A DNA stretch of 64,000 bases from Chiloscyllium plagiosum (Eukaryota), in the NCBI RefSeq assembly GCF_004010195.1, contig NC_057724.1, positions 8,038,671 to 8,102,670 on the forward strand. The letters are read 5' to 3'. A program made the translations under genes and the position numbers. The notes beneath the pieces were generated by a model that saw only the letters and a program-made list of their open reading frames with translations, was not told the DNA's origin and did no database searches. Shown piece after piece: positions 11,178 through 63,664 of this stretch; positions within the stretch are counted from its first letter, which is position 1; each line of letters opens with the position of its first letter.

Positions 11178-11315
11178 TCACTTCTCAGGAATAACCAGAA
11201 GGTGCACAGAGTTTGGGTCTTCTGTAGAGTCCAGCTGCTTCCTGTATCTTTCCCCTCTGTGTTGTTTCAAGTACGGACCCCAATCAGGAGCTGATGTGCA
11301 AGCAGCAGATATTTT
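11178..11315 (-). CDS. SLC6A14: Copy A terminal exon 14
   Basis: [45 protein letters not shown], then TGA at 11178-11180. Confidence 0.9.
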   Translation of the reverse strand, partial: KISAACTSAPDWGPYLKQHRGERYRKQLDSTEDPNSVHLLVIPEK

Positions 11316-14166: not shown

Positions 14167-17100
14167 CTTTTTACTGCAACTAGTGGACAGGTTCCACCTT
14201 TACCCTGTACAGGACACTGTTGGAGAGATTATGTGGGGAAGGGGGTGTTCAGGGTACACCCCTGTGTAGAACTCCAGGGAAAGTATGGGGAGAGAGGGTG
14301 GGAGGCAGTCATTTGGAGATTGTGCCTGTTTAATTACTGTAAACAAAAGATGCGATCTCTGTTGGAAACACATCTTTGATGTAATGTTTCCATCAGGACC
14401 TCGAGATCTCCTTCAGATAATCTGACTTTCGGATAATTAGTATTCGGATAATCGAGGTTCCTCTGTATATAACTGTAACATGACCTGCCAAAATGCATCA
14501 TCTCACATTTGCCCAGATTGAACTCCATCTGCCATTTCTCTGCTGAACTCTCCAATCTATCTATATTCAGCTGCATTGTCTGACAGTCCCCTTCACTATC
14601 TACTCCTCCATTAATCTTAGTGCCATCTGCAAACTTGCTAATCAGGCCACCTATACCTTCCTCCAGATCATTTATGTATATCACAAACAACAGTGGTCCC
14701 AGCATGGATCCCTGTGGAACACCACTGGTCACAGTTCACCATTTTGAGAAACTACATTCCACTACTACTCTCTGTCTCCTGTTGCTCAGCCAGTTCTCTA
14801 TCAATCTAGCTAGTACACCCTGGACCCCATGCGACTTCACTTTTCCAATCAGCTTTACCATGGGGAATCCTATCAAACGCCTTACTGAAGTCTATGTATG
14901 TGACATCCACAGCACTTCCCTCATCAATCAACTTTGTCAGTTCCTCAAAGAATTCTATTAAGTTGGGACCTTCCCTGCACAAAACCATGCTGCCTATCAC
15001 ACATATGCTGATTTTTTTTTCAAATGGGAATAGATCATATCCCTCAGTATCTGCTCCAGCAGCTTCCCTACCACTGACATCAGGCTCATCAGTCTATAAT
15101 TACCTGAATTATCCCTGCTACCATTCTTAAACAAGGGGATAACATTAGCAATTCTGCAGTTTTCCAGGACCTCACCATGTTCAAGTATGCTGTAAAGATA
15201 TCTGTTAATGCCCTAGCTATTTTCTGTCTCGCTTCCCTCAGTAACCTGGGATAGATCTTATCTGGATTTGGGGACTTGTCCACCTTAATGCCTTTTAGAA
15301 TATCCAACACTTCCTCCCTCCTTATGCTGAACTTGACCTAGAGTAATCAAACATCTACCCCTAACCTCAAAGTCTGCCGTGTCCCTCTCCTCAATGAATA
15401 CCGACACAGAGTACTCATTAAGAATCTCACCCACTTTCTCTAACTCCACACATAACTTCCCTCCTTTGTCCTTCAGTGGGCCAACCCTTTCTCTAGTTAC
15501 CTTCTTGCTCCTTTTTCCGAATAAAAAGCCTTGGGATTGTCCTTAAATATTTGCTAAAGATATTCCATGACCCCTTTTAGCCCGCTTAACTAAAACCATT
15601 GTTTTAATTGTGTAAATGTTATAAGTTACACTTTTTTTGTAACACTGAAGTCTCCATAGTCCTATCAGACCATAGGGCTGCTCTCTCATTAGAGAGTGAG
15701 GTGACTGGTGGTGGTTTACCCTGAGGGTCACCATGCCTCAGACAAGGGGAGAGTTCCTGGAGGAGAGTTCTTCATGGTAACCTCAGCTGGAACGGGAATT
15801 GGCATCACTCAGCATCACCAACTCACCATCCAACCAACTGAGCTAACTGACCCACCTTGTTTTAGTTGTTTAATTAACACAATTCATATGTTTTGTGATG
15901 AACCCTTGGTACTTTCAGGTAAAGAGCCTTTGTAATTTTACTATTTTTCTTCACTCTGACCCTAACTGCTGTACATTCTTATGTTATATGTTCTGTCTCT
16001 CACTGTCACACTCTGCAGTTATCCTTACCTGATCCTTACACAGTGCAATAACACTGTGAATTATACCTCAGTGACGTCTTTGCGCACACAACCTCCAATG
16101 TACACCCATTACTCCAGCTTCAATCCCTAACCAAGATGGTATTCACAGTGAACTAAACTGAGCATGAGTGTAAGTAGAACAAAAGGATATCTTGACTTTG
16201 AAAGGATAAGCTGTGTGTTGAATCAATTGGAACTCCAAAGCCTAATTTTATGTTCTCTGTTCCTTAATCTTTAAAAGATTTCAAAACTGTCCCTCACCTG
16301 CCACAAGGTGGGGCCCTCAGCTTGGACAACTCTCACCATGGCCACAATGGGGATCCACATAATACAGAAGATGGTCATACACCAGCCCAGTGCTCCTGAC
16401 CAGACAGGGTATTCAACAGGTCCATATGTTGGAGGGGTGAGTGTTGCTAAGGACCAGATTAAGACTGCCTGAATGAAATGATACAAAACTAGATCAGAAA
16501 TAGAATGAGATTGACTATTTTCAGTTTAAATCATAATAATGTGAAACAGCTCCTTACCACCAGCAAACATGGAGAGATCAGAATCCAACAGATTCTCCAC
16601 CACAGCCAGAAGAGCCAATTCCTTTCCCCAATCATCATCTCAATGTCCTTGATGAATCTGTTTATCCCTATACACAACAAGGAAGCAGAGAGACACCATC
16701 ACTCGCTCTGTCCTGTCTTCAGGGCAGCTTGTTTACTATCGAAGTTCATCTTGTACTGGGTGGCCCACTAATGAACAGGTTTAAGCAGAAAAGGAGTCAC
16801 TTGGCATTTTAAGGATAAGGAAATTGAACCCTGTCACCAAATGATCAATCTTTCCCTCCCATTTTAGGAACAAGGGTCTGTCCATCCCAGCACAAATTGG
16901 AAACATGAGTTTTCCTGGAATGAGCTCTTTTGGGTGAAGAAGGTAATGTGGAATTTGAAACTCAAACAGATCAGTCATGACCGTATTGATAGTGGAGCAG
17001 GCTTGAGGGGCCGAATGGCCTATTTCTGCTGTTGCTCACATGTTTCTGTATTTAGGATTTGTTACAAACATTTCAGTTTCATATTTTACAAGTCCTTAGA

Positions 17101-20100
17101 GATGTTGATAGATCATGACATCATGGTAGAGGAAGCTGTTCAAGTTGGGAGAGGAAATGTGATTAACCTCAAGACTACTGCCTGTATCACTGACAAACAC
17201 ACTGGATAAATAAAACATTGGAGTTAAATGTGTGGCTCAGATTGGTGTGGGAGGTATAGGGTTCAGTTCATGGGACACTAGGATAGTACTGTGGTCAAAG
17301 GAAAGTGTACCATTGGGGTGGACATGCCTCAGTTGAACCACACTTGGGGTGGGGAAAGTGAATCATAGAGCTGTACAGCATGGAAACAGACCCTTCAGTC
17401 CAACCCGTCCATGCCAACCAGATATCCTAAATTAATCTAGTCCCATTTGTCAGCAGTTTGCACATATCCCTCAAATCAATTCCTATTTATATACCATCCA
17501 GATATCTTTCAAAATGTTACGATGTCGAAATGCAGGTGTTGGACTGGGTGGGCAAAATTAAAAATCACACAACACCAGGTCTGTTGGACTATAACTTGAT
17601 GTTGTGTGATTTTTAACTTTTAAAATGTTGTAATTGTACCAGCCTCCATCACTTCCTCTGGCAGCTTATTCCACACATGCACCACCCTCTGCAAGAAAAA
17701 GTAGCCCTTTAGGTCCCTTTTAAATCTTTCCCCCTCACCTTAAATCTATGCCCTCTAGTTTTGGACTCCGCTAGTCCAGGGAAAAGGCCATAGCTAAACA
17801 CCCTATCCGTGCTCTTCATGGTTTTATAACCTTCTATAAGGTTACCCCTCAGCCTCTAATGCTCGATGGAAAATAGCCTCAGCTTATTTAGCCTCTCCCC
17901 AAAGCTCAAACCCTCCAACCCTGGCAACATCCTTGTACATCTTTTCTGAAACATTTCAAGTTGCACAACATCCTTCCCATAGCAGGGACACCAAAACTGA
18001 ACACAGTATTCCAAAAGTGGCCTAACCGATGTCCTGTAAACTGCATTTAACAAAGAAGAGCACTTGAATTCTCGTCACCTTCTGATATAAAGAGCTATCT
18101 ACACCACGTCCAGCAGCTGATTCATTTGGTCTGATTTTATTAAAGAAACTACAAAGTGCTGTAATTTAATTGATTTTGTTTCAGTATTTTTCAAGATTCA
18201 CTGACCATAGATCCAGCTGAGACCGATGAGTTGCAGGAGAGCTGTTATAAAGAGAATCCAGTCTGTAGCGTAATGATCGATAAAATTTAACCAGTAAATC
18301 CCAGCCTAAAATTACATGGAAAATTCAAAAATATTACACAGGAAAATTATTAAGTACTCTTACTTTCAAATTCAGACTTTAAAGAGATTTGTAATATGAA
18401 GACCTATGGGTAAAAAAACATAATTCTAATTGAAGCAAAATCTTGCATATGATGGAAATCTGAAACAACCACAGAAAATATTGGAAAAACTTTCCAAGTC
18501 TGGCAGCACCTGTGCAGAGAGAAACTGAGTTACTGTTCCGAGTCTGGTATGACCCATTGTCAGAAATGTTCCAACACAATTCTAACTTGATGCTCAATAT
18601 TCGCTCATTCATTTATGTCTGGGCATCTATTACATTGCTGTTCTCTCTTCTATATTGATAACTGAATGTGATTTTCAAAAATGAGCCAGCAGAATTTACC
18701 TGCACTGTTCTAACTGTGATCTCACGTGGGTCAAATACTTTCTAGATTTAAACATGATCACCCTTTCTGTACATCTTAACCCTCTGTCTCCAGATTTAAC
18801 TGCCTGGGAACATTGGGGGGTATTTCCACAAATCCCATGAAAACAATGATTTCTCTCAGTATCCCAAAGTTCAGCAATATAACTTTGAGATCCACTACAA
18901 ACTAGGCAGGAGAATAGTTTCTTCAGACACAATGAGAGGTGTACCAAAGCCAAATTAGACCATGAATGTTTTGCTAAAGTGACAAAACATTACATTAGAA
19001 AATATCGTCAATATCAATATGATGAGTATTGGACAACGGAACTGCCAACACTTCAATAAAACAAATAACTGATGAAATTTTGGAAAATTATTATCGAAGT
19101 CTGGCTTGATGTGAATACAAGAGTTGCCAGATACACTTCAAGGGTTTTAGCCATACAGAGATGAAATTGACGTTTCTTAAGAGGCATGACTTTCAAAGAT
19201 AAACAGATGCTTATAGCTGAAGCTCTTTACCAAGCTATATTGCCACATTATACCAGGGGCATATGGGCATAGAGTGAAAAAAGGCATCTGAACAGCTCAC
19301 TCTGTAATGGTCATGGATCAACAGGAACACTGAGATGTCAGTGAGAATGTGTCAAAGTCACCCACCATATCAACAGAAAGAACCTCTCTACCCTTATAAG
19401 ATTGCATTGTAGCCTTGGCTGCAGTTTGTAACATTTATTTCCCATCACTGGTGACAATTTTCACAAAGTGACTGACTAATTTTCCAACCATCAGACATTG
19501 GAATGATAACTCAACTATACCCATAGCAGTTACCACGTATACAAAGCGTATTCCATTCAGTGATAACAAATGTGTTTGCTGAGAAATCTTATAACATAAT
19601 AAGCAGAATTGTGGTCCTGTTTCCCAGTCCTAGTGTGAGATTGGAATGTCTGAGAGCGAACTCAGAATCACAGCAACATGTCAATATGACAAGATCACTG
19701 CACAACATTAAACAGCTGCAAAAGGAAAGGACCAGAGCACAAGCTCTTGCTGTATTACTTCATCCCATGAATTTGATCAACTTTTAAGAGTTACTGAGTA
19801 CATGTGATAGCAGCTTAAATCACTGTTAAACAACCTACCTGTGTCACATATAGAAGGCCAAGCAGATAAAATAACGAACAAATGCCAGCTGTCAGAAGAA
19901 GGCGCTTTGATCGGAGCAATGTAGGGAACTGGTCCTGCAGGGCTGTCATAACTGTTTCTGATGAAGAAAATGTCAAATGAAGTGATTAATTAATAACTTG
20001 CACAATGACAGGACAAAACATCACTGGACACACCAAAGCCCTGGGAGTTTGGAGTAAAAGGTTTCTGCATCCATTTCTCTAGCCCTGAGTCATGTATTTT

Positions 20101-23100
20101 TTTCCCCAGTTGTGTTCCTGGTGCTCTAATGCAGAGGATAACTGCATCATCATTATCCTCCGATATCACGTAGGGTGTTTCAACATGAGTGAGTTTCAAC
20201 ATTAGTAAGTGAGTTTGCTGACCATCCTGTTCCCTGTGAGGCAGGTAAATAAAAGTCTCCATCTGTTTAACAACAGTATTTGTCTCAATTAAATGTGAAG
20301 GGATAAATTCTAGGCATGAGAGCAAAGAAAAGAGATGGAACATGAACATCAAGATTAAAACCACCATAATAGATATCAAACAGATTGCATTATGAAATTG
20401 TTCAGATGTCATGTGATTTTCTTTCCCCCGAATTTTACTTCAAAGCAGTTGCTAAACAATAAAACAAAGACATTAATTCTTCTTTCAGACAACGAGGAAA
20501 CAATTGCTACAAAGAAATATTATAGATTTATCCACTAACATCACCGACAGCACTTTTTTGCTCAATTCCGTCATTATTCCTTCAAAAGAAATCAGTTGTT
20601 TAAATGATGCAATGCCATTTTTACCTAAACCTCCAAATGATGTGTCAACTCCCAGAGTGAACAGCATGAAGAAAAATAAAACAGACCATAATGGTGCCCA
20701 CGGCAACTGTGCAAGGGCCTCTGGGTAGGCAATGAAGACCAAACCAAAACCTGAACAGTGAACAGAATTGATAAAGTACAATTAATGTTGCTGTAAACAG
20801 GTTATTGACTTAAAATCCATTTAATTTATTATTTCTTAATTTGTCAACATTTGCAAAATTGTTCATTTCACCAGACTGCAATGGTGTGCTGATATACATT
20901 TACAATATAAATCATTATAATTACATTATATAACCAATCACTCTCAATTAAGAATTTACAATATTTGAAAGCAGTGAACACTGAGTTCAGAGTGACGTTT
21001 ATATTCAAGGCAAAAAAAAAATCTCTCCAATATGTTGTTGAGACTGGCATTCTAAAGCAGGGTATAATGTTGGAGAATCGGGAATGAGAGAGAAATAATT
21101 GAACAGATAATTTAGCGCAGTGCGTTTCCTAAATTGTTAGGGGTTGCAAAGTGTAGATGCACAAACGGACCTCGGTAACTGTGTCGCTAAGTCACTGATG
21201 ATTAACATGTATGGACAGCAAGCTATTAGGAAGCCTTGTGGAATGTCAGCCTGTATAGCAAGAGAATTTGAGTAAAGCAATAGTGAAGTCTTGCTTCAAT
21301 TGTCTAAGAACTTGGTTACAGTTGAAAAGTGTGGCGCTGGAAAGAGCACAGCAGATCAGGCAGCGTCCAAGGAGCAGGAGAGTCAACATTTCGGTTAAAA
21401 GACCTTCATCATGAATATGGATGAGGAAGGAGACTGAGAAATAAATAGGGGGTGGGAGTATGGCAGGTGGAAAGGTGATATATGAATGCCCATAGAGATG
21501 ATTATGATAGTTTGTTGGGAAGGATGGAGTGGATAGATGGGATGGAAGATGGGCAGGTAAGACAGGACAAGATGGCAGTGCCAAGATGAAAGGTTGGATC
21601 TGGGATGGCAGAATGGGGTGGGCAGATTTGGAAACTGGTGAAGTCAATATTGATGCCACGTGGTTGGAGGGCCCTGCGGCGAAAGATGATGTGTCCTTCC
21701 TCCAGTTGGCAGGTGGCTTTGATTTGGTGGTGGAGGGGGTCAAGGATTTGCATGTCCTCAGGGGAGTGGGAAGGGGAGTTGAAGTGTTTGGCCACAGAGA
21801 GGTGAGGTTGTTTGGTGTGTGTGAAGCAGAAATGTTCCCTGAACTATTCCGTGTGTTGGCACTCGGTCTCCCTAATGTAAAGGAGACCACATCGAGAGCA
21901 ATGGATGAGGTTCGAGGGTGTGCAGTAAAATCTCTGCCGGATTTGAAATTATCCTTTATTGCCTTGGACGAAGGTGAGGTGGAGGTGTGGGTGCAGGTTT
22001 TGCACCTCGTGCAGTGGCAAGGGAAGGTGTTGGGTGCAGGGGGTGGGTTGGTGGAAATTGTGGACCTAACAAGGGAGTCCCGGATGGAATGGTATCTGTA
22101 GAACGCAGATTGAGGTGGGGAGGGAAATATATCTCTGGTGGTGGGGTGTGAATGTAGGTGGCAAAAATGGTGGAGAACAACGCACTGTATCTAGAGATTC
22201 ATGGGGTGGAACGTGAGGACTTGGGGGTTCAATTCTTTTGCGGTTGGGGGGATAGGGTTCAAGGATGGAGGTGCGGTAAGTGGAGGAGAGCTTGGTTAGA
22301 CTACACCTGGAATATTGTGTACAGTTTGGTCTCCTTTTCTCAGGAAAGATATCATTGCCATAGAAGGACTGCAATTAAAGTTCACTAGACATGTTCCCAG
22401 GTTGGCACAACTATCCAATGAAGAAAGATTGTGAAAACTGGATCTATAGTCTCTAGGATTTTGAAGAATGAGAGGTCATCACTTTGAAACTTACAAAATA
22501 GTTAAAGAGAATGTTCTGAATTTGAAGCCGTGTGATGTACCTTTAAGAGAGAGTGAAAGCTGTTTTGTACTGAAAGCTTGCAGGCACCTGTCATGTGACT
22601 GATTAGCAGTCTCAGAGTGTATTGGAAAATTGAAAATATGTAACATTTGGCTGTAAACTAGATACTTCAGTTGTTTTGACCACAATTCAAATCTAACCAA
22701 TCAATTTAAATTATGCCCCAGGATACTAAAACCCAACAGAATTTGAATTTAATGCTTTTGCCAACCTCGAACCAATGAGACGATCCAATGCTTGGGGCAT
22801 AAAGAAGCAGATATTTTGACAGACAGAGAGAGACCAAGTGCCATCGGCAGACTAACTGCCAGCATCACACTCTCTATCAAAGGCACCTTTTTCACATGAA
22901 ACATCTTTGCAGCAAAAGACTGAAGATGACCCAGGGAGAGCTACAGCCAGAGGAAGACAGACACTGAAAACAACAGCCGCTGTCTGGTTTTGAAATTAAA
23001 TTGATGCAATTTTAATATGAGTTTTTATGGGAACAGTATATAGTTATACAGTGTGATGTAGATAACAAACATTTAAGAGAAAGGAGGATTAGAGGTGCAA

Positions 23101-26100
23101 ATAGTTGTTGTTTAATGTTCATTTTTAGAGTTAAAGAATAAATTGATTTTTTTTCTTTAAACAGTGAAATTTGAGAGTTCTTTGTCTCTCATATTTTAAC
23201 AGATTATGGGGCGAGGTGAGTTCTTCTGGCTGTTTGGTTTAATTAGCAGAAGAGTTCACCGCAGTGTTGTAACAAGAATGACAGGGTAGCTGCAAAGAAG
23301 ATGTTTCCTGTGCCTGCAGAATCTAAAACCAGGGACCACAATTTAAAAACGAACGGGGATGTCACTTCGGGCCAAGATGAGGAGAAATCAGTTTACTCGG
23401 GGGTTGAAACATTCTCCACTTCAGAGGGCTGTGAAAGCTCAGTCTTTGAGTAAATTTAAGACAGAGATTGATATAATTTGGGGCGGGGGGGGGGGGGGGG
23501 GGAACGGTGTGGGTTGGGTGTTGCTCTAGTGGTATTATCACTGACCTGTTAATACAGAGACGCACATTATTCTGGGCACCTGGAATCAAATCTCACCATG
23601 ACAGATGGTACATTTTGAATTCAATAACAATCTAGAATTAAGAGACTAATGATGACCATGAATCCATTGTCAATTATCATTAAAAAAAACTATGTTTCTC
23701 TCACATCCTTTAGGGAATGAAACTGCCAACCTAATCTGTCCTACATGTGACTCCAGACCCAAGCCAGTCTTAACTGCCCTCGAGGTAATTAGGGATTGGT
23801 AATAAATGCTGGCCTAGCCAATGACACTCTCATCTCATAAATATATCTTGAGAAAAAGATTTCCAGTGATGTACAGAGGCAGAGAATGGAATGAGTAAAC
23901 GGCACTGATCATTCAGGATTATATGGACATTGGGAGAACGTGCAAAACCCACACAGCCAGACAGTCACCTAAGGCTGGATTCAAACCCAGGTCCCTAATG
24001 CTGAAATGGAGCAGTGCTAACCACTGAGCCACTGTGCAGCCCTCGTCATTATTACTTACTTATTACAGCATCATCAACAGATATAACTGTTGCTCTTTGG
24101 AGGGTCAGTGTGGAGTTGTTGGGCCGAAGGGCCTGTTTCCACACTGTAGGGAATCTAATCTAATATAACTGGCATTGCACAGAATGTTCATATGAAACTG
24201 GTTTTTCACATGAAAAACTTTCTGGAAAATGTGCTTTCAACAATTTATGATTTGAGACCACAATACAGTACTTTAATTGATGTCATAAATAAACAAAATT
24301 GCTTCAGATTAAAAGTATAAGTTGACATTTTAGAATTCATTCAAATTTTCTTCATAAAAAATTAAACATGGTTCATATAAAATGTAACTCTAAGTTAAAT
24401 AACAGATCTTATACTGGACTATAATGTTAATTTATTGCTTTGATATTGCTGTTTCTGCGATTATTTCAAAAGCTCACTTTAAAGAGCTAAGGTTCAATCC
24501 CCAGGCATTCCATTGCATTATTCAGCTTCAATCCCTGTCCAGTATAAATCAAACATCATGGCAATAGGTGTTGCTCTTCAGAGCCTGGTTATCAATTTGG
24601 ATCTGAGGATTGATCATTGTGCCTAGATACTTGAACGTCAGGTTGATTCACTTCAGACAGCGCATTAAAGCTGTCTGACCCTGAATATTTAGAACAGCTC
24701 TAATTACCTGACTGTGCAACCTCTGAAACAGGCTTGNNNNNNNNNNNNNNNNNNNNNNNNNNNNNNNNNNNNNNNNNNNNNNNNNNNNNNNNNNNNNNNN
24801 NNNNNNNNNNNNNNNNNNNNNNNNNNNNNNNNNNNNNNNNNNNNNNNNNNNNNNNNNNNNNNNNNNNNNNNNNNNNNNNNNNNNNNNNNNNNNNNNNNNN
24901 NNNNNNNNNNNNNNNNNNNNNNNNNNNNNNNNNNNNNNNNNNNNNNNNNNNNNNNNNNNNNNNNNNNNNNNNNNNNNNNNNNNNNNNNNNNNNNNNNNNN
25001 NNNNNNNNNNNNNNNNNNNNNNNNNNNNNNNNNNNNNNNNNNNNNNNNNNNNNNNNNNNNNNNNNNNNNNNNNNNNNNNNNNNNNNNNNNNNNNNNNNNN
25101 NNNNNNNNNNNNNNNNNNNNNNNNNNNNNNNNNNNNNNNNNNNNNNNNNNNNNNNNNNNNNNNNNNNNNNNNNNNNNNNNNNNNNNNNNNNNNNNNNNNN
25201 NNNNNNNNNNNNNNNNNNNNNNNNNNNNNNNNNNNNAGTTTGGCCACAATGAGTCCGAGTAAAATTGAAGGGAATGGAAACCGACAGCAGGGTGGGGAAC
25301 GGAGGGGTGAGAACTTTCCACTGGCTGGAGTCAGAGCAAGCACGAAGGAAATTAGTTGTGGTGACTAGGAACTGAGCAACTCATCCCCAGGACATCTCTG
25401 TTGGAGTTGCTCACGATCAGGTTCGTAGCCCAGCCACCTTCAGCTGCTTTATCAAATGTTTTCACTCCATCATAATGTCAGAAATGGGGATGTTTGCTGA
25501 AGGTTGCACAAAGTTCAATACCATTTTCCCAACTCCTAGGACAGTGAAGCAGTTCATGCCCATATTCAGTAAGACTTGGTAACATTTAAGCTTGAGCTAA
25601 GCAAACTTCACAGCATACAAGTACCAAATAATGACCATATAATCCCTACAGTGTGGAAACAGGCCGTTTGGCCCAACAAGTCCATACCAATCCTCCAAAG
25701 AGCATCCCAGCCAGACTCACCACCATTCCTTACCCTATGCCAGTAATCCTGCATTTCCCATGGCTAATCCACCTAGCCAGCACCTCCCTGGACACTATGG
25801 ACAATTTAGGGTGGCCAATCAACCCAACCTGCAGATCTTTGGCTGTGGGAGGAAACTGGAGCACCCAGGAAATACACGCAGACACGGGGAGAATGTGCAA
25901 GCTCCACACAGACAGCCCCAATGATGGAATCAAACCTGGGTCCCTGGTGCTGTGAGGCAGCAGTGCTAAACACTGAGCCACTGATGCTGACCATCTCCAA
26001 TGAATGAGAATCCAGCCACCTTCCTGCGGCATTTATTCATCCTCGGGGTTACCACTGACTAGAAACCTCAATGGAACATCCATATAAATATTGTGGCTAC

Positions 26101-29100
26101 GACGGCCATTTCGAGGTGGGAAACTCTGTGGTGAATTGCTCTTTTCCAAATCTTCCCAAAATCTAACCATCATTTATAAGGCACAGGTCAGCAGAGTAAT
26201 GGAATACTCCACACTTGCCTAAATAAATGTGCCCCACAACACTCATGAACCTCTCCACCGTCCATGACCAAGCAAGCCTCTCAGTTGGTGTTATGTATTT
26301 GATTAGTTGAACTTAGGAGAGATACTGAGCTATTTGCAGGTTTATACAACTCCCAGTTTGTTAACATAATCAAACAACGGTACACAGCTTTCTAGAGATA
26401 TGGCTAACTCAGTGAAATCTATGCAGCTTCTTCTTACATGTCTCTATAATGTGATCTTTTACATTATCTCGATGGAAAATGCTGTTCGAGATAATAAACC
26501 TTTCAAAAAGCTGGCCTTTTTTCCCAGCCTCCATCTTAAATACTTATTTCCTCTATCACTTGTGCAATGTGGCAGCTATGTATACTACTCACCAAATTCC
26601 ATAGACAGCACTTTCCAAATCTATGATGTCTACCATCAAGGAGGACAAAGGCAGCAAATACACAGGAACAACATCACTTGCAATTTACCCTGCAAGGCCC
26701 TCAGCATCCCGATTTGGAAATATATCACTGTTGCATTAGTGTCGCTGGGTCAAAATCCTGGAACTCCCTCCCTGACAATACTGAGGGTGTCCAGACACTA
26801 ATTCGACTCCAGTAGTTCAAAGAGACAGCTCACCACCACCTTCTCAAGGGTAAATATTAATGACCAACAAAAGATGGCATAGCCAACGATGCCCAAATGG
26901 CTTGTAATAATACAACAGATATCCTTACAGTTACTTAAGCAAAACACTGCAAATGCTGAATATTGGGAAATAAAAACAAAAGTATTGGAGGTACTCAGCA
27001 ATTTGACTAATACTTGCAGAGAGAGAGAAACAGAATTAACATTTCAGGTCATTGACCTGTCAATAGAACTGAAGGAAAATAAAACAGAGAGTAGGATATG
27101 GCCATATTGGGAGCCCATGGTTTCAGTAAAAGTTAACGATATCTGAAGTGCCGGTGTTAAAGGTTGCAACATCAGATCAATGTGACAGAGACAGAAGCAG
27201 GATGTGAGGAATGTAGTCAAAAGGCAGCTGTGAGAGTTGTTGCTTTTGAGTGAATTTTAGAAAGCCTAGCTCCATAAATCACAGAGGGTGCAAAAGAGAA
27301 TATAAGATTCAGAATTGGACCAGGTGAAGGTTAGGAAGGTAGAAATTGGATACAAAATGAATGAAACTTTCCAGTTCTTGCTGAGGGGAAGAGGTGACAC
27401 TGAAATAGTTGTCAACGTACTGGGAAAGTAATGAAGCAGTTACCAAGGTAACAGGTACATAACTCCAGGAAATGGTAAGAGTGGTCAGAGATCACCTGAC
27501 CATTAATGGAATTTCTGTTGATAAATGCCACAGTGTTGTGATATGGCCCTCTTATAGCCATATGTCGATGACACCTTGTTTCTTGTGAATATCTGAACTC
27601 TATATTCCCAAATCCTATTGCCTGGGTGACAACACAAGCCTCATTGTTGGGGCACAGATGGCATTACTCATTGTCCTGATGTATTTGTGGGTGCATGACC
27701 TAAAGATACCATACAGGGCCCCTATTGCTCCTTAGAAGTACCTAGTTGTCACAAACTACGTACATAACTGGACTAAGGAGGTTCTTAGCTGTGAGCACAG
27801 TCAGTGGAGGAATACCCTGCAGATGAGGGCTGCACACATTCCTCTACACAGTGAGAGATGTCTCACACCCTGGGGAGGCAATGGCTTAGTGATATTATCC
27901 TTGCAATATGAGAGACACAGGTAATGTTCTGGGAACGTAGGTTCAAATCCTACCACAGCAGATAGTGGAATTTAAAGTTAACAAAAATCTGGAATTTAGA
28001 ACATAATGATGACCATGAATCCATTGTCAATTGTTTGAAAAAAACTCATCTCATTCACTAATGCCCTTTAGGGAAGGAAATCTGCCATCCTTGCCTGGTC
28101 TTGATATACATGTGACTCCAGACACACAGCAATAAGGTTGGCTCTTAATTACCCTCTGAGCCTCACCGCATCCCATGATGGTCACAAAGTGTTGGTAAAT
28201 ACTAGCTGCCAATGTTTGTGGGTGAGGGCCCATGGATTGTGGTGTTTGATGGTGAGCAACATGGAAGCTGTGCACAGTCAGTAGTGACCTGAAGTTGCCA
28301 GGTACTCACTCTGGCTTCTAGCCCAAGAATTCACAACATCTTGGTTGTTTGGCGTGTATGGTAAGATAGGAAATGGGCTATTCATCAGCAATTAGTGTCA
28401 TTAATAAGGCACTAAACAAGTTACAGTTCCCCTTACTGCCTAGTAAGAAACACACCTCAACATTCAACAAATTCATAAAAGATCAGCGAGTTGTTCCTGA
28501 TGGAGATGGACCATGTCAGAGTTCTATCTTAAATTTCACCGTAGGCCACGTGGCTCACACCCCGAACAGAGTCTACCCACAGTAACTGCGACAAGGCTAG
28601 CAACATATTTCTGCAACTTTAGTAACTACTGGAGGTGAGGTGGGTAACTTGATACTGGAATGTCAGATATGTTGTGGTATCCTCTTACAGACATTATCAG
28701 CATTTTATTGTTTTCTCCCCATGATTATTCTTCATCACCTGGGAGATAAACCAGCCCCTTCACAAATGAATTATAAATTCTAATTTATTTGTTTCAGAAA
28801 TTCATGCTTAGTCACTAATTATAACTGTGTTCATCACAATCATTTGCTTAGTCACTAATTATAACTGTGTTCATCACAATCATTTACCTTTCCTGATGAT
28901 TTAATTCCCTTTGATAACGCTGCCCCAACTATCAGTCGGACCAGAAGCAGACAGAGGGCTAAATACCAGACTATCTCCCCAGTCTCATCTATTGAACTGG
29001 AACGGCGTAAAACCACTTTACTGAAGGAAATGAAAATAGAGAGCATCTGTGTTAGGATAAAATTCATTGCCCATATTAACGATTAGATACAAAGCACCTA

Positions 29101-32100
29101 AGTACTTAATGAAATAAATATATGTAGATTTGAACATCATAAAGTTTGCCTATAGTTTTTAAAAATTGTTCCTGAGGTTAGACGAGATTTGATCTTCTCT
29201 CTGATCTATCTCACTCTTCCTATTGCCTTTCAAAATAGATCTTTGTTTTAACAGTGAGTGCTAATGTTGTTGACCAGAGGGGATTTGATTTGAAGGAGTT
29301 TGTGGCAGAGTTTCACTGACTGCCTCACTTTGCACTGTTAAAACTATTTGATTTAATCACTATGTCTCCCAGTGAACTTTGCTCCTTCATATTGTTCAAC
29401 ATGGTGTCTACTTCCAGACAATTAATCTAAATGCAATTCCCAGGTCTATCTGTTAAATACAAGACAATATCACAATTAAAAGCAGAGAAAGGGACGTTGA
29501 TCATTGATAATTTGAAACATTTAATGTTTAGGAATTCTGGTGATGAATATTTTCCTTGAGGAATAATTTTTTAAAACTTTTTTGTGATATAAATGTTGTC
29601 AAAGCAGGGTTTTGAAACCAGAAGCCTATTAACTGGAAAAGGGTCCCTGCCAATGATGCCATTTTGTAACAGGTTTGTGATGTAAGTAGCCCCTCTATCA
29701 AACTCAAACAGCTTCCATTTCATCAAACAGGGCATTCACTAAATAACCATCTAAAGAGCGATTACTGCTGTGCAGGTTATCGGTGTGGCTATCTGCAGCA
29801 ATGTACTTACTCCCAGTATTGCTCACTTGGGCCCTGGTGAGGAATGGAGATTTCTGATCCATTTGGACAACTTTCATTGTTTGTCTGCAGCCATGTTGTA
29901 TTAACGATTTCAAAGTATCCATCATTCAGAGTGAGGTTACAGAATGGGTCTGGAAAATGTGGAATGTGTTTCAGTATTACATTTAAATTTTGCATTCCAT
30001 TTCAACATAACCAGGGTCACTGTTTCACTCTGACTGAATCAGTTAATCATTTTGATTACAAGGGTAAGGTCATGCATAGATTGGAACACAGAGGTACAGT
30101 CCGTGCACTCACTCTCAGCACAGTCCAGCTCTGGTGTTCAATCTGCTTGTTCTCTTGTTTCACAAAGTCTGTCATATAAGGAATCATAAAACCAAATTAA
30201 AATTTTACAGTATAAAAAGTTTCATCAAAAATATTCAGTAGTAGTTATTGTAGGAGACTTTAAGGATTATAATGAGCTGGATTTGCCAGGGAAGGGGAGT
30301 CTCACACACCTGGCTTCACCACTCTTTTTTTTGTCAGAATGAATGAATGAAGCTCCACATTTCTGAGTGGGAGATTCAACTCAGGACTCTCTCAGAAATA
30401 TGGAGGCACATTTTCACTCTGACAGTTCTTTCACAGCACAGAGCCTGCCTGAGGAAGGCAAAACATGACCTTTTTCACAGCAGGCAGCTGCTATCTTCTG
30501 ACACTTTAAGGTTCCTGACAGCCACTTTAACAGCTGCGGTCAAACAGTAAGTTCAAAAGATAAATGTGTGTTATGGTGCAGGAAAGGGAAGGTGCTAGAC
30601 TGATAGGAGGAGGGTGGCAGCTAAATGGGTGATAGAAGGTGGGTGCCATGTGGATTGGAGCAGGGTGCCAGGCTGCCAGGCTGGATAAGGTGACAACTGA
30701 GGAGAGGTAGGGTGTCAAGTGGGTAAGGAACCATGATGCAGGATAGCAACAGATCCTGCTAAATAATCTGTATTTAAGGGAGGTTGGGGTTGGTGGGAGA
30801 ATTTGTGGAGAGAGGGAAGGGGGCAGTCTTGGGGGTCAGTTCCAGCAGCAGTGACATTGGGAAAAAGGGAATGTGGGGATATGGATGATCCAACAGTAAC
30901 AGTGAGTGGGAGAATGGGGCCAAGTTTGACATCATCAGAGATCAGGAGGTGATGTTAGATCTCCTGAGGAAGTTGTGGTGGGGACTGTGGGAGGGGTGCA
31001 GGTTATCTGGTCAGGGTTTGGATACTGTAAGGGGTCTAGGGGAGATATTGATCACATTATAGGAGGTAAGTATGAAATATGTTTCATCAGTTACTCGGGC
31101 ATTGAACCATGTATGTAATAATCTATCTTTTGCTGAGGAGCTATTTAACATAGTTTCATTGGTCATGTCACCTTTGGGTATGTTGTAAAGCTGTTTAAAT
31201 CTTGACCTCTTCATATGGACACACTGGTTACAAAGGCCCAACAATGTCTCTTCTTCCTCAGCCAGCTGAGGAAATTCGGAATGACGGCGATTACCCTTGC
31301 CAACTTTTTTAAGTGCACCATCGAGAGCATTCTGTCTGGATGTATCACTACCTGGTATGGCAACTGTACCACTCAAGATTGGAGACAGTTACAGAGAGTG
31401 GTGAACTCGGCCCAGAATCACAAAGATCAACCTCCCATCTATAGAATCCATCTACCAGGCCCGCTGTCAAGGAAAGGCTGCCAGCATTTTTAAAGATCAA
31501 TCCCATCCTGGCAATGTCCTTCTACAACCTCTACCATCGGGGAGAAGGTACAGAAGCCTGAACATACACAACAGCCGTTTTCAAAACAGTTTCTACCCAA
31601 CTGTTGTTAGAGTACTGAATGGATTCACAAACACTTAACATTCGCCTGTACCTGCGTTTTTATTTTTGCCGCTATTTACATATTATTTACTTATCTATGC
31701 TATTTAACTCTGTGATCTGCCTGTATTGCTCACAAGACAAAGCTTTTCACTGAGCCTTGGTACACGTGACAATAAATTCAATTCAATTCAATTCAATTCT
31801 CTGATTCTTGAGCCTTCAGCCAATTGGGACAGTTTCTGTCTATCTATTCTGTCCAAACCCCCTCATACGTTTGAATAGCTTTACCAAATCTCTTCTCAAC
31901 TTTTTCATCTCAAAAGAGAACTGTCACAGCTTTGTCAATCTATCTAGGCGTCTGAACCTCAATCCCTGGAAACATTCCCATCAGCCTTTTCAGGACCCTC
32001 TCATGTGCAGTGCAGAGCCCAGGACTGGACACAATAATCCGGCTGAAACTGAACCATAACCAATACGGTCAAGGTGATCCCTGACTGTATTGTACAGACT

Positions 32101-35100
32101 GTGACTGTGGGTGATGTGTGACATTGAGTGATGGATGATTAAAATGACAAGAATTAATAGCAATCTCTGATGTAAATGTAGGAAAGGAAACAAACTTCAA
32201 ACATTTCCCAAATTCATATATGGGGGTTTCACCTCCCCTGTTATCAACAAAGCCCTCAACTGCATCTTCTCTATTTCCCACACCTCCGCCCTCGAACCCC
32301 ACTTGCCCCAACTGCAACAAGGATAGAATCCCCTGGTTCTCACATTCCACCTACAAATCTCCAAATTCAGCATATCATCCTCCGTCATTTTCACCACCTA
32401 CAGTCAGACACCACCACCAAAAATATATTTCCCTTCTCACCCCTACCTGTGTTTTGCAGGGACCGTTCCCTCCATGACTCCCTCGTTAGGTCCACACTCC
32501 CCACCAAACCCCTTTCCACACCTGGCATCTTCACCAGCCGGTGTAAGAGCTGCAAAAACTGCACCAACATCTCCCCTCTCACCTCCTTCCAAGGTCCCAA
32601 AGGAGCATTCCAAATCCGGCAGAGATTTACTTGCATATCCTTGAACCCCATTTACTGCAGCCATTGTTCTCAATGTGATCTACTCTACATCGAAGAAACT
32701 GACCGCAAACTTGTGAAAATGTTCAGGGAACACCTCTGGCCCGTATGCACCTTCCAACTGCACCTTCCTGTAGCCATCCATTTCAACTCCCCCTCCCACT
32801 CCCCAGACGACTTATCCATTCTGGGTCTCCTCCACCATCTAAACAAGGCCACTTCCAAACTGGAGGAGGAACACCTCATTTCCGCCTTGGGAGCCTACAA
32901 CCACACAGCCTCAACATTAAATCCATCAGTTTCCAAATCTTCCCTCACCCCACCCCAGATTCTAACCCTTTGACTTGGCTCCACCCTCTTGAGTTGACCT
33001 ATTTGTCCATCTTCCTTCCCACCTTTCCTACTTATCACAATCATCTCCTACCTTCGGCCAGCTATCGCCATCCCAACTATCTATCCCCTAGCCCGACCTC
33101 CACCATTTATTTCTTAGCCCTCTGATGCTCCTCAGATGCTGCCTGACCTGCTGCGCTTTTTCCAGGGCCACATTTTATCGATTCTGACTTCTCCACTATC
33201 TCCCAACTCCATAGATAGTCAGGGTGCACCCACAGTCCCAGTCTGTGCAAAAGGAAAGTTGCTTCAGAAATTTTAAATGGACTCATTTCAAGATTTCAGA
33301 CATACTCTTGCCAATTCAAACAGAAGTAATCTTTGATAACAATGTTAGATATTAGGAGTGAAACAGTGTCAGTGTGGGAGGTGAAATGAAAGTGAAAAAA
33401 ACAAGGCTTTTAAATAACACAATAAAAACTGAGTATTTCATAGAGTCAGATGGTATAAGAAATATATATGAGATTGTAGACGTTTGGAAAGAACCCAGAA
33501 GAGGAGAAAAAGTTGAGAAAATGATACCTGCACAAAACACAGAGATAGAGAAGAGAATCAATGTGAGTCACAGTACTGGGATGTTAGAGAGATACAGACA
33601 ATGAACTTAGTCAGAAAGAACACAAGACAGACTTATTGACAAGGTGAAAGAATAAAAGACATATGAACAACTTTATCAAAGACTGACAAATTCTGATGTT
33701 TCACTATTTAGTTCTGACTGACTGTCCTGCTATTCCAGTGACTCAGAGCCATGATTCCTGCTGCTGCTTTCTATCCGAGTCTTTCTGCTGTATGGTCACA
33801 ATGAGGATGGTCACTGAAACTATTGTCCATCTCTCTCCCTCACTCAGACTGACAGAATGAACTATGAACAGTCGGTGTGTAAAATCCCCCAACAGAATTG
33901 AGCACTGTACCTTTGGGGGTCCTGCTGCATGTTTCATCTGCTCCCCACCAACTGAAGCAGTCTGCCCATGGCAGGGGCGATTGAAAGGAAGCAAACAGGT
34001 AGTACAGACTGTAGCCAATGATACAGGCATATGAAATATTGGCAATTATAATCAGAAGGACCATAGCAATCCCCACACCTGAAAACATGAAAGAACAGAA
34101 GATTAGATTGTGAGCTCTTGATGTGAAATAAAGTATTTGACATGGGTTTGACTGGTCATTCAATCAAATTGGATTTTCTTTCAGTGGGCACAGTACAGAG
34201 CAGGGAGACTGCCCTGGTTGACCACACCTTTCAGGACATGTCTGTTGTGTTTGGTCAGTATTGGCTGCTTCAACATTCAATGTCCAACAGTAGAGACTTT
34301 AAAGGCTCTTTGTATTAAACAGGAGATTTAGAATTCTCTGTCTCGGTTCCAAGAATGATGATCCCTGTCTTCACCTTTAGACTCCTTCTCACTAATCATC
34401 ATTGTGGCTGGTAATAATCACACATTCCCAGTCTTGGTAATAAATACCATCTTCAGCACTTCATAAGGTGCACGGCAGATCAGAGTGCAAACACGACATC
34501 AGCAAGTCCAGTTTAAACATCGACCAGATAAGGAAAATTTAACAATATTTGGGTAAGACGTTGACACTGACTTATTGTACGGCTTATTTAAGCTTGTTAT
34601 GACTATTTTGGGAAATAAACATTAACCTTGGAATATTGGTACAGCTTTCCACACTCCAATAGGTCCGAGGCTGGCAAACTGCCCAAGGGAACATTCCAAG
34701 AAAAACATTGGAATCCCAACTAGTGCCAGGATGAGAGCGTAGGGAATAAGAAATACACCTGGAAAATAGTAGAAAGGATTTCAATGTAGATAAAATCATA
34801 TGTTCAAGCTGAAACTCGGTGCCTCCACTGTGTTCACTGGGTTAAAATTAATCCTGAAATCTCTATGAATGCATGTTTTGTCTGTCTGTCTGCATACCTA
34901 GCAATCTACTGAGATGGTTGACTTTCAGCTGCACTTTTATTTTTCTACTACATACTGGAGGTTGTACTCAAATGGCCACTTTCTGAATTTCACTCTCTAA
35001 ATGAATCAAATATCTTTCCCTGTCATTTTATACAATCATGTCATGACCTTTTTTTATGCATTCGCCCTTGGTCTCCATCAATCCAATGGTGTGGGTTGTG

Positions 35101-36044
35101 AAGAGCCCTGATTCGAGCAGGTTTGATGATAATGTACAAGCCTGAACCCAGGGCCTGGCTGAGGAGCCTGCTATTCTGAGGATTTCACACACTGTGCAGT
35201 TAATATATTTGATGTGGATGGTTCATGAATTCTATATAATATCACTTGAAAATATAAATTAATAAATGAACTATTTACTTTGGTTTATAAATAGCATCGA
35301 ATTGATGCATCGCGTGGCTAATTCTGAAGTATCACCTTGACACATCTCTCACATCAGAAAAAAAAAACGGCAAATTTGTTGACTGTGGGATTGAATTCAC
35401 ACTTCACATTAATTGTTTAACCCTGTACTATTTACTGTATTATTTTTAGTGCAATGAACACTTGCTATTTCCTGAATATCAACATTCTGTACAAATCGAT
35501 GAATTGACCCATTTAGCTCTGCCTGCTCACTCTGCAATATTTTAAATTTGTCTACAGTACCTCCTCCATTTCTATAAGCCAGGTAAGGGAACCTCCAGAT
35601 GTTGCCCAGACCGACAGCGTAACCAATCATTGAGAGCAAGTAGTCAGTCTTCGAAGACCAGTTACCCCGCTCCACATTCTCATCACCCACAGCACCATGT
35701 TCATTGGCAGCATCCTGGGAGAAAGAATGGAAATGGTAAGCTCAGAAATGGGTCTTTCTCCAAACTAGATCTCAGCAAGATGTACTGTCACCACTCCTCA
35801 CAACTACCTTTATAGGAAAACTATGTTGTTCTCCAATGTGCAGCAATGTCTTGCAGATTATAAACAGCCAGAAGTTCACAGAGAGTGTACAGTTCATAAC
35901 AGCCAAAATCTACAAATTAACAGTATCTCTCATTGTCCAACACAGGTTTTACAGTTTTGTTGAAATACATACCATGTCGGCTGGATGGTTTGTCTGAATA
36001 TCATTCTGTGAGAATCCAGATAAAGACAGTTCCTTCTGGTCCAT
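11178..36044 (-). CDS. SLC6A14: SLC6A14-like Na+/Cl- dependent amino-acid transporter, copy A (spliced; exons 1-6 and 9-14 seen, exons 7-8 not seen)
   Basis: Twelve exons with canonical AG/GT sites and compatible phases, except across the missing 7-8 block. Motifs [66 protein letters not shown] and DWGPYL..HRGERY are typical of SLC6A14. Likely a paralogue rather than the strict orthologue; coding status uncertain. Confidence 0.88.
12733..12915 (-). mobile_element. Internally deleted V-SINE
   Basis: Head and V-domain joined directly to the 3' tail and (TCTAA)n repeats. Confidence 0.85.
13105..15590 (-). mobile_element. CR1 LINE (ORF2 remnants) in copy A intron 13, interrupted by a MITE
   Basis: Fragments [40 protein letters not shown] and KFADG; (TTCTTTG)-like tail near 13105. 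Confidence 0.9.
13659..14465. mobile_element. Non-autonomous Tc1/mariner-pogo type DNA transposon (MITE)
   Basis: 23-bp TIRs CAG(G/A)GGAACCTCGATTATCCGAA (22/23 match), flanked by TA at 13657-13658 and 14466-14467; C-rich interior with a (CA)n tract at ~14139-14166. Confidence 0.88.
15650..15856 (-). mobile_element. tRNA-derived SINE, second family
   Basis: Reverse strand begins GGGTCAGTTAGCTCAGTTGG (A box), followed by a ~200 bp body. Confidence 0.6.
16298..16468 (-). CDS. SLC6A14: Copy A exon 13 (TM12)
   Basis: [57 protein letters not shown]; 171 nt; donor gtgagg. Confidence 0.92.
16558..16667 (-). CDS. SLC6A14: Copy A exon 12 (TM11)
   Basis: [37 protein letters not shown]; 110 nt; donor gtaagg. 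Confidence 0.92.
17362..18050 (-). mobile_element. CR1 3' fragment containing a deleted palindromic Penelope-associated repeat (~17520-17620)
   Basis: [16 protein letters not shown]...[18 protein letters not shown] and a CR1 tail; the insert is flanked by AAAATGTT. Confidence 0.85.
18206..18305 (-). CDS. SLC6A14: Copy A exon 11 (TM10)
   Basis: [33 protein letters not shown]; 100 nt; donor gtcagt. Confidence 0.9.
19080..19560 (+). mobile_element. Highly decayed Gypsy integrase remnant
   Basis: Broken frames read ...QGHMGIE... and ...[16 protein letters not shown]...PW, resembling the HHCC zinc-binding region and start of rve. Confidence 0.5.
19839..19957 (-). CDS. SLC6A14: Copy A exon 10 (TM9)
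   Basis: [40 protein letters not shown]; 119 nt; donor gtaggt. Confidence 0.9.
20625..20750 (-). CDS. SLC6A14: Copy A exon 9 (EL4, TM8)
   Basis: [42 protein letters not shown]; 126 nt; AG/GT flanked. Confidence 0.93.
21320..22290 (-). mobile_element. Penelope-like 3' fragment (GIY-YIG) with pLTR
   Basis: [17 protein letters not shown]...LEEGHIIFR...[10 protein letters not shown] is the PLE GIY-YIG C-terminus. Confidence 0.82.
22512..23274 (+). mobile_element. Solo LTR (763 bp) inserted in a + strand CR1 fragment
   Basis: TGTT...AACA termini, 4-bp TSD AGAA (22508-22511 and 23275-23278), internal AATAAA at ~23137; CR1 sequence resumes on both sides. Confidence 0.82.
24737..25236. other. Assembly gap (500 N, probably a placeholder size)
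   Basis: Run of exactly 500 N, located where exons 7-8 of copy A are expected. Confidence 1.
25237..26900 (+). mobile_element. Decayed L2/CR1-group LINE RT and 3' end, with a V-SINE inserted at ~25640-25985 (-)
   Basis: Degenerate GVPQGS/FADD-like segments near 25400-25510; 3' end similar to the tail of the SINE at 6372-6720; clear V-domain in the insert. Confidence 0.65.
28806..28885. repeat. Perfect 40-bp tandem duplication next to the exon 6 donor
   Basis: GCTTAGTCACTAATTATAACTGTGTTCATCACAATCATTT x2. Confidence 0.95.
28888..29020 (-). CDS. SLC6A14: Copy A exon 6 (TM4)
   Basis: [44 protein letters not shown]; 133 nt; AG/GT flanked. Confidence 0.92.
29811..29949 (-). CDS. SLC6A14: Copy A exon 5 (EL2)
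   Basis: [46 protein letters not shown], with several N-x-S/T sequons; 139 nt; donor gtaagt. Confidence 0.9.
31205..31799 (+). mobile_element. Rex1/Babar-like LINE 3' end with (AATTC)n tail
   Basis: [16 protein letters not shown]...[18 protein letters not shown]...LQRVVNSAQ, then AATAAA and a pentamer tail at ~31775-31799. Confidence 0.78.
32225..33200 (+). mobile_element. Penelope-like GIY-YIG endonuclease fragment
   Basis: ORF 32449-32973: [25 protein letters not shown]...FREH...HFNSPSHS; partial pLTR at ~33125-33195. Confidence 0.85.
33911..34078 (-). CDS. SLC6A14: Copy A exon 4 (TM3, start of EL2)
   Basis: [56 protein letters not shown]; 168 nt; AG/GT flanked. Confidence 0.92.
34627..34758 (-). 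CDS. SLC6A14: Copy A exon 3 (TM2)
   Basis: [44 protein letters not shown]; 132 nt; AG/GT flanked. Confidence 0.93.
35561..35714 (-). CDS. SLC6A14: Copy A exon 2 (TM1)
   Basis: Acceptor ttctcccag; [51 protein letters not shown]; donor gtactg; 154 nt. Confidence 0.93.
35973..36044 (-). CDS. SLC6A14: Copy A putative coding exon 1 ([24 protein letters not shown])
   Basis: ATG at 36044, 72 nt open frame, phase-0 donor gtatgt, 258 bp from exon 2. A paralogous 72-nt exon lies at 48192-48263. Confidence 0.7.
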
Positions 36045-55028: not shown

Positions 55029-55160
55029 TTAGGGTGTCGCTAGAAGCTGTACCCCATAAGAAGTATCTCTTGAATCAGGCCTTTTCCTGTATCTTTCCCC
55101 TCTGTGTTGTTCCAAGTACGGACCCCAATCAGGGGCTGGTGCACAAGCTGCAGATATCTT
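55029..55160 (-). CDS. SLC6A14: Copy C terminal exon 14
   Basis: [43 protein letters not shown], then TAA at 55029-55031. Confidence 0.9.
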   Translation of the reverse strand, partial: KISAACAPAPDWGPYLEQHRGERYRKRPDSRDTSYGVQLLATP

Positions 55161-63452: not shown

Positions 63453-63664
63453 CTAAATGGTGGATACATGTGATATGGTAAAAGTAATTGTGCTGCAAGG
63501 AAAGAATAAAGGTCCTTCTACTTCAACCAACAATGTACCAGGAGACCACTCTCAAAAGAGTGACCGTTGTGACATTTTCCCTTTATTAAATCATCTTGGG
63601 ACACTTTTGGGTAATACCATTAATTCTGTGCCAGATTTGAGCTGTAGAGACATTTCCAAAATGT

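Follow-up and report, generated by a model that had tools for sequence, protein, structure and literature searches.

An SLC6A14-like gene with an altered substrate pocket in a shark paralog array

Introduction

Does a changed motif in the third transmembrane helix (TM3) of a shark transporter mark a reshaped substrate pocket, or the random decay of one gene copy among many? The question is raised by an SLC6A14 (ATB0,+)-like gene of Chiloscyllium plagiosum, here called copy A, on the minus strand of a 64-kb stretch of chromosome C15 (the window, meaning the whole stretch of DNA analyzed). A preliminary description had reported Ser-Tyr-Ala (SYA) in place of the Tyr-Tyr-Asn (YYN) motif and favored a reshaped pocket. 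Here, copy A is compared with its paralogs and with related proteins of sharks, rays and ray-finned fishes.

Results

Copy A extends from an ATG at 36044 to a stop codon at 11178, and twelve exons with an open frame, canonical splice sites and matching phases were identified. The features of the window are:

35973..36044, minus strand: exon 1, open, with the ATG at 36044
35561..35714, minus strand: exon 2, open, with the canonical TM1 [13 protein letters not shown] at 35624-35586
34627..34758, minus strand: exon 3 (TM2), open
33911..34078, minus strand: exon 4 (TM3 and start of extracellular loop 2), AG/GT, 168 nt, open frame
34041..34043, minus strand: Ala at the LeuT V104 / SLC6A14 V128 pocket position, by alignment to DAT V152 (PMC9599917, excerpt)
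34026..34034, minus strand: Ser-Tyr-Ala for Tyr-Tyr-Asn (human SLC6A14 131-133), gate Tyr kept, by alignment
29811..29949, minus strand: exon 5 (extracellular loop 2), open
28888..29020, minus strand: exon 6 (TM4), open
24737..25236, no strand: assembly gap of 500 N, presumed location of the exon for TM5 and of most of that for TM6-7
24708..24736, minus strand: 3' tail of exon 8 (KPVSEVAQS and GT donor), open, adjoining the gap
20625..20750, minus strand: exon 9 (TM8: LGVDTSFGG), open
19839..19957, minus strand: exon 10 (TM9), open
18206..18305, minus strand: exon 11 (TM10), with Gln at 18233-18231
16558..16667, minus strand: exon 12, open
16298..16468, minus strand: exon 13, open
11178..11315, minus strand: exon 14, open, ending at the TGA stop
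55035..63474, minus strand: neighbouring paralog, 3' exons (9-14), with another TM8/TM10 pocket, by exon mapping

Exon 4 (34078-33911, minus strand) has phase 1 on both sides and reads (G)[40 protein letters not shown]... About 110 codons, belonging to the TM5-TM7 exons, were not found elsewhere within the 64-kb window. The final 29 bases of exon 8, with the GT donor, adjoin the 500-N gap, and we infer that the missing exons lie in this gap (24737-25236). Two unplaced contigs were considered as their source and rejected: C87777 matches the flanks of copy A at 88-95% identity and has an exon that looks degenerate, and C68206 reaches 80% identity.

The database protein P0003 (201 aa, Chiloscyllium according to its source) is identical to the first exons of copy A and stops short. 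A full-length ortholog is P0004, which is joined to copy A as its sister (support 0.99) in a tree that leaves out codons 121-140; 22 of the 462 compared residues differ, none of them in the pocket, and the TM6/TM7 residues and ligands of copy A were taken from this protein. P0004 scores 651 bits against the PF00209 (SNF) profile over profile positions 1-523; copy A lacks the roughly 110 gap codons. A structural model, proposed as a check in the preliminary description, was made for P0004 with AlphaFold (pLDDT 75.5, pTM 0.77; three of five models poor) and has an intact fold, with TM scores of 0.81-0.82 to GlyT2/PROT. Against its nearest stop-free or near-intact relatives, copy A has a whole-gene dN/dS of 0.33-0.37; a close relative in the array carries six stops. 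The closest named relatives of the copy A exon, among the matches listed, come from hemiscylliid sharks. One RNA run gave a depth of 0.4-2 over the bins of exons 4-6 in sense direction, reads which, at 90% likeness and with no splice joints listed, may stem from any paralog.

Other features of the gene were recorded as well. In TM4, Trp is replaced by Arg (28938-28936, minus strand), a change common to P0004 and 9 of 72 shark proteins at a site that is variable in fish too. A short open stretch flanked by AG/GT lies just upstream of exon 5 (30169-30112, minus strand); it is an exon in the database models P0003 and P0002, and no RNA support was seen for it. Farther towards the neighbouring paralog lie lone remnants of exon 1 and exon 9 (48263-48192 and 41801-41691, minus strand), between that gene and copy A. 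Around exon 5, a scan for repeats revealed nothing notable.

The changed TM3 motif was confirmed exactly as first described. SYA falls on YYN in ungapped alignments to human GlyT2 and PROT, and the same string is present in P0003 and in the ortholog P0004, so that it is not a one-off error. In the alignment to full-length DAT (9jkh), where query residue 2 is DAT 142, the Ala four residues before the gate Tyr corresponds to DAT V152, which is the LeuT V104 and SLC6A14 V128 position (PMC9599917, excerpt). The kept gate Tyr, the Ala at the pocket position and the canonical TM1 had all been read correctly. What did not stand is the notion that SYA is special to copy A, since most copies in this gene array lack YYN. 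Among 28 TM3 exons on C15, three carry YYN and two SYA, and 16 have Ser in first place.

In sharks and rays, SYA was found in 5 of 72 proteins. It occurs in two separate clades, one formed by copy A and P0004, the other by P0007, P0133, P0012 (Rhincodon), P0023 (Stegostoma) and a further gene of C. plagiosum itself at 8.57 Mb on C15; the motif is kept in a sister species, the whale shark and the zebra shark. When copy A was compared with the 8.57-Mb paralog, codons 126-140 had a dN of 0 despite a dS of 0.48, and we therefore conclude that the SYA helix is constrained; exon 4 as a whole has a dN/dS of 0.04. SYA is thus neither private to this copy nor drifting with a dN/dS near 1, and the earlier reading of a reshaped pocket instead of random decay is supported at the sequence level by purifying selection on the helix. 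Recent gene conversion was rejected as the source of the shared SYA, because the dS of exon 4 (0.58; 0.48 over codons 126-140) is not below that of the gene (0.33) and because the intron flanks of copy A are closer to those of neighbours in its TM10 Gln clade (see below) than to those of the 8.57-Mb paralog. Old retention or convergence remain. Loss of YYN is a family trait of the elasmobranch expansion and not of copy A alone.

The TM3 exon of copy A has 40 matches in the genome, 29 of them on C15 (G000:C15) from 4.3 to 12.3 Mb. From this interval, 1.84 Mb around the matches were taken for exon mapping, and 30 gene or fragment models were obtained. Seven of them have stop-free exons 2-14, and the remaining ones are cut by gaps or tile ends or contain stops. 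About two dozen or more copies of one SLC6A14-like gene are found on one chromosome, and the array has a birth-and-death pattern.

Some of these loci deviate in other ways. Locus L049 (G000:C15:4610920, plus strand) reads IGYATC in TM3, with the Tyr one position early and Ala at the gate position; the shift probably stems from compensating indels, and this is the only stop-free copy seen without an in-register gate Tyr. At 8.519, 8.528 and 8.705 Mb on C15, exon 2 encodes a TM1 with GNAVGFGN and hence Asn at the LeuT N21 position, a site that is Cys in 41, Tyr in 16, Ser in 7 and Asn in 5 of the 72 shark/ray proteins. Two half genes (exons 5-14) without the first four exons lie back to back in opposite orientation at G000:C15:8093720-8175504 and may be an assembly collapse. 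A separate SLC6A14-like gene on C20 (G000:C20:22222266-22275219, minus strand) keeps YYN and has its TM6 Trp replaced (Phe, Leu); at the TM8 pocket site, its shark orthologs carry Met or Leu. In the Hemiscyllium model P0010 the transporter is fused to RA-like and FERM domains (residues 672-813), probably from a merged neighbour gene; as a synteny anchor, this fused part yielded only the names of its Pfam domains.

The search with exon 4 matched 187 proteins, 120 of which were listed, and all named ones among those listed are from sharks or rays of at least 15 genera. The listed matches and 23 cluster members were restricted to 595-660 aa (91 of 143) and, after dropping pairs with at least 95% identity, reduced to 72 proteins. 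For the control, 109 fish proteins were reduced to 93, with a Ciona match and off-length proteins dropped and no tetrapods in the set. YYN is present in all 93 proteins of ray-finned fish and in 6 of 72 shark/ray paralogs, a set biased to SY-type helices since the copy A exon was the query; the count of TM3 exons in the C. plagiosum genome is free of this bias. The gate Tyr is present in 72 of 72 shark/ray proteins. YYN was also found in all five proteins recovered with the C20 exon, one of which later grouped with the canonical C15 copy.

Overall identity is 77% among the shark paralogs versus 72% among the fish orthologs. For the pocket we used nine sites in human numbering, Y52, S125, V128, T129, Y321, S324, W327, S423 and S427 (PMC9599917 and PMC12655857, excerpts). 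Their mean entropy is 1.79 bits in sharks versus 0.65 bits in fish, an excess that was matched by 0 of 20,000 random TM sets, and 54 distinct nine-residue signatures occur among 68 shark/ray proteins. In the tree without codons 121-140, which had fish SLC6A14 as its root and contained no sequences of SLC6A5/7/9, tetrapods or chimaeras, the canonical YYN copies branch first and the non-YYN shark and ray copies lie beyond, with weak deep supports. The relatives of copy A carry SLC6A14 names in databases and are nested with the canonical YYN copies in this fish-rooted tree. One clade spans sharks and rays with the same pocket. N133 and Q424 appeared to covary, 15 of 16 non-Gln proteins also lacking Asn (p 0.001); this was one of nine pairs tried and the p value ignores relatedness, so that it is a lead only.

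Codon models were run with our own code and scaled nucleotide branch lengths. In 20 stop-screened genes and fragments (8 sites), pocket dN/dS was 1.52 (1.10-2.04) and 1.68 (1.21-2.31), and in 11 stop-free genes of greater completeness (nine sites) the values were 2.09 (1.51-2.81) with one tree and 1.80 (1.27-2.43) with exon trees. All four 95% intervals lie above 1. Among randomly drawn TM sets, 3 of 20,000 and, twice, 0 of 10,000 attained the pocket value. Other TM sites have a dN/dS of 0.39-0.46, and 15 ligand positions for carboxyl, amino, Na and Cl, selected by the LeuT/SERT assignments and the GlyT2 alignment, have one of 0.08-0.09. Site tests in the 20-gene set gave p 0.005 and 0.0007 for M7/M8 and 0.02 and 0.005 for M8a/M8, and M1a/M2a was not significant; in the 11-gene set all three tests were significant with one tree and none with exon trees (p 1, 0.07, 0.34). 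The two YYN flank codons alone (dN/dS 1.4-1.8) and the TM3 128-137 block (1.07-1.27) have intervals that include 1.

Identity was also compared within and between six clades, picked from the tree, at 12 sites of the pocket region: the nine above, both YYN flanks and Q424, which was added after seeing the data. At these sites identity is 0.79-0.97 within clades and 0.37 between them; for the rest of the protein the values are 0.85-0.90 and 0.78. The pocket is stable within and divergent between clades, which is predicted by specialisation and not by relaxation. Copy A and the canonical shark copy P0109 match at 3 of the 12 pocket-region sites, versus 76% elsewhere.

In human SLC6A14 numbering, the changes of copy A are S125I, V128A, T129N, Y131S, N133A, S423T, Q424S and S427G. 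The Na1, Na2 and Cl ligands and the extracellular gates (TM1 G-x-A-V-G-x-G-N, Arg, TM3 Tyr, TM8 Asp, TM10 Asp) are kept; in copy A itself, ligands and gates are seen for TM1, TM3, TM8 and TM10, and the Na2 Asp is kept in exon 9. Since Y52, Y132 and the ion ligands are kept, together with S324 and W327 as read from P0004, copy A should bind an alpha-amino acid in the usual way, and the amino and carboxyl groups of the substrate would be held as in ATB0,+. V128A together with S427G is predicted to enlarge the deep pocket, and S125I together with S427G would do away with the proposed polar cleft for the side chains of Lys/Arg. N133A and Q424S together would eliminate the hydrogen-bond pair of subsite B, and Y131S may open the vestibule above. 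Copy A lacks the Gln that is equivalent to SERT T439, as mapped via DAT and GlyT2 with a DAT-SERT offset that we assumed.

Published work bears on several of these positions. The residue at the V128 position restrains the TM6 Trp in GlyT1, and the polar cleft for cationic side chains in SLC6A14 has been modelled and proposed (both PMC9599917, excerpt). The YYN Asn corresponds to SERT N177, which is in the subsite-B hydrogen-bond network with T439 (PMC7470834, excerpt), and in GlyT2 the first Tyr of YYN is in contact with inhibitors at the pocket entrance (PMC12685064, excerpt). A larger and less polar pocket would accept large neutral amino acids and only weakly Lys/Arg. Our prediction that copy A takes up large neutral or aromatic amino acids and transports cationic ones weakly is tentative, and we would put it somewhat below even odds.

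A further change concerns TM10, where copy A has Gln (18233-18231, minus strand) for the Glu of the proposed third Na+ site (GlyT2 E648). The Glu is found in 93 of 93 fish and 66 of 71 shark proteins, and Gln in the other 5 of the 71. Copies with Gln group together in a single clade (support 1.00), and the residue is common to C. plagiosum's own C15 copies at 7.84, 8.34, 8.48 and 12.20 Mb. In GlyT2, E648M impairs Na+ affinity (PMC4919009), and ATB0,+ has the same Glu and couples 3 Na+ (PMC9564218); the structural assignment of the Na3 site is disputed (PMC13663745). The exchange of Glu for Gln would be expected to lower coupling from 3 towards 2 Na+. At 4.42 and 8.30 Mb on C15, and likewise in 6 of 68 shark proteins, the Na2 Asp in exon 9 is Ser, a possible second change of ion coupling.

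Discussion

Judged from its sequence, copy A is probably a functional SLC6A14-like Na+/Cl- amino-acid symporter with a re-specified pocket, in an array whose members likely differ in substrates; we give this reading a probability of about two in three. The array might instead have grown for dosage or tissue-specific expression, with a tolerant pocket and copies that are still broad, ATB0,+-like carriers. Such relaxed constraint would fit the TM3 128-137 block and the exon-tree site tests, as the intervals of the former include 1 and the latter are not significant, and ATB0,+ is already broad, with V128I changing little (PMC9599917, excerpt). However, within clades the pockets are conserved like the rest of the protein while identity between clades falls to 0.37, pocket dN/dS exceeds 1 in four fits, and the same sites are nearly fixed in the 93 fish proteins. 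We therefore regard relaxed constraint as unlikely. That copy A is a young pseudogene or truncated gene, with SYA as inherited baggage, is highly improbable: the only named protein identical to its first exons, P0003, has just 201 aa, some 110 codons are unseen and many neighbours have stops, but 12 stop-free exons with canonical splice sites and consistent phases, an exon 8 tail that adjoins the gap, a full-length ortholog at 95% and a whole-gene dN/dS of 0.33-0.37 against stop-free or near-intact relatives all speak for an intact gene.

Elasmobranchs rely on urea and methylamines, and copy A could carry osmolytes or non-alpha amino acids (betaine, sarcosine, beta-alanine, taurine, carnitine, TMAO) for osmoregulation. 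Human ATB0,+ is reported to carry carnitine (title of a reference in PMC9599917), and a lower Na+ coupling would suit the exchange of abundant solutes. Nevertheless, the carboxyl, amino and Na1 ligands are fixed (dN/dS 0.09), and TMAO is an unlikely cargo because the residues that bind the carboxylate are held at this value. P0004 also keeps Y52, W327 and the TM6 Ser (GlyT2 S479), which has been described as a hindrance to bulkier ligands (PMC13663745). An osmolyte cargo of copy A is thus very unlikely, and an amino-acid symporter with a re-specified pocket is the reading we prefer.

Copy A resembles human SLC6A14/ATB0,+ (PMC9599917, PMC9564218 and PMC12655857, the first and last in excerpt) in its gate Tyr, TM1 and ion ligands, in W327, S324 and the full-length match to PF00209 via P0004, and in the canonical YYN copies at the base of the shark clade. 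It differs in its altered pocket (S125, V128, T129, YYN, S427) and in the Gln at the proposed Na3 site. Carriers of the ATB0,+ lineage take neutral as well as cationic amino acids, at 3 Na+ : 1 Cl-. From these comparisons, copy A appears to be an ATB0,+-derived variant that has the ATB0,+ architecture without the canonical pocket and the Na3 Glu. GlyT2 (SLC6A5; PDB 9wbr, 9hue) is the best solved relative by sequence (E 8e-198, about 50% identity) and fold (TM 0.81), with the same TM1 and gate residues, but the Ala, SYA, Gly and Gln of copy A stand against I283, YYN, T582 and E648 in GlyT2. GlyT1 (SLC6A9) likewise has another residue, Met, in place of the Na3 Glu of TM10 and couples 2 Na+ (PMC4919009); however, it belongs to another branch, copy A has Gln, and P0004 has Ser in TM6 where GlyT1 has Gly. 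In the AAAP/SLC36/SLC38 transporters, substrate size is set by how large the residue at the LeuT V104 position is, and Ala there goes with longer side chains in SNAT5 (both PMC9599917, excerpt). Those transporters are of another family, whereas here tandem paralogs of one SLC6 gene change at TM1, TM3, TM6, TM8 and TM10 together.

We found no description of an elasmobranch SLC6A14 expansion in a search of openly available literature, which for genome papers covered the main text. 'slc6' is absent from the main text of two shark genome papers (PMC11979771, PMC8455134), the supplements of which may list the family, and the array copies carry automatic '-like' names in public databases. The finding of interest is the pocket-focused diversification of the family together with the Na3 change; SYA alone is minor.

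A TM3 pocket that is nearly fixed across ray-finned fishes is varied in sharks and rays, and their copies likely form a repertoire of transporters with different cargoes. It is possible, if rather less than an even chance, that one nutrient transporter has become a receptor-like repertoire in these animals, in an array older than the shark-ray split, with the core fixed, the pocket rewritten by selection copy by copy, one branch with changed Na+ coupling and some cargoes not known for any SLC6A14, for example osmolytes, or amino acids recovered from the urine, the gut or seawater. There is as yet little explanation for the unusual breadth of SLC6A14, a target in drug delivery and in cancer, and the natural series of pockets that share one scaffold offers a mutagenesis panel, already made, for SLC6 specificity. 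The branch with Glu exchanged for Gln offers a natural test of the disputed third Na+ site, and the array provides named candidates for the carriers that handle amino acids and osmolytes in the nitrogen-conserving elasmobranchs.
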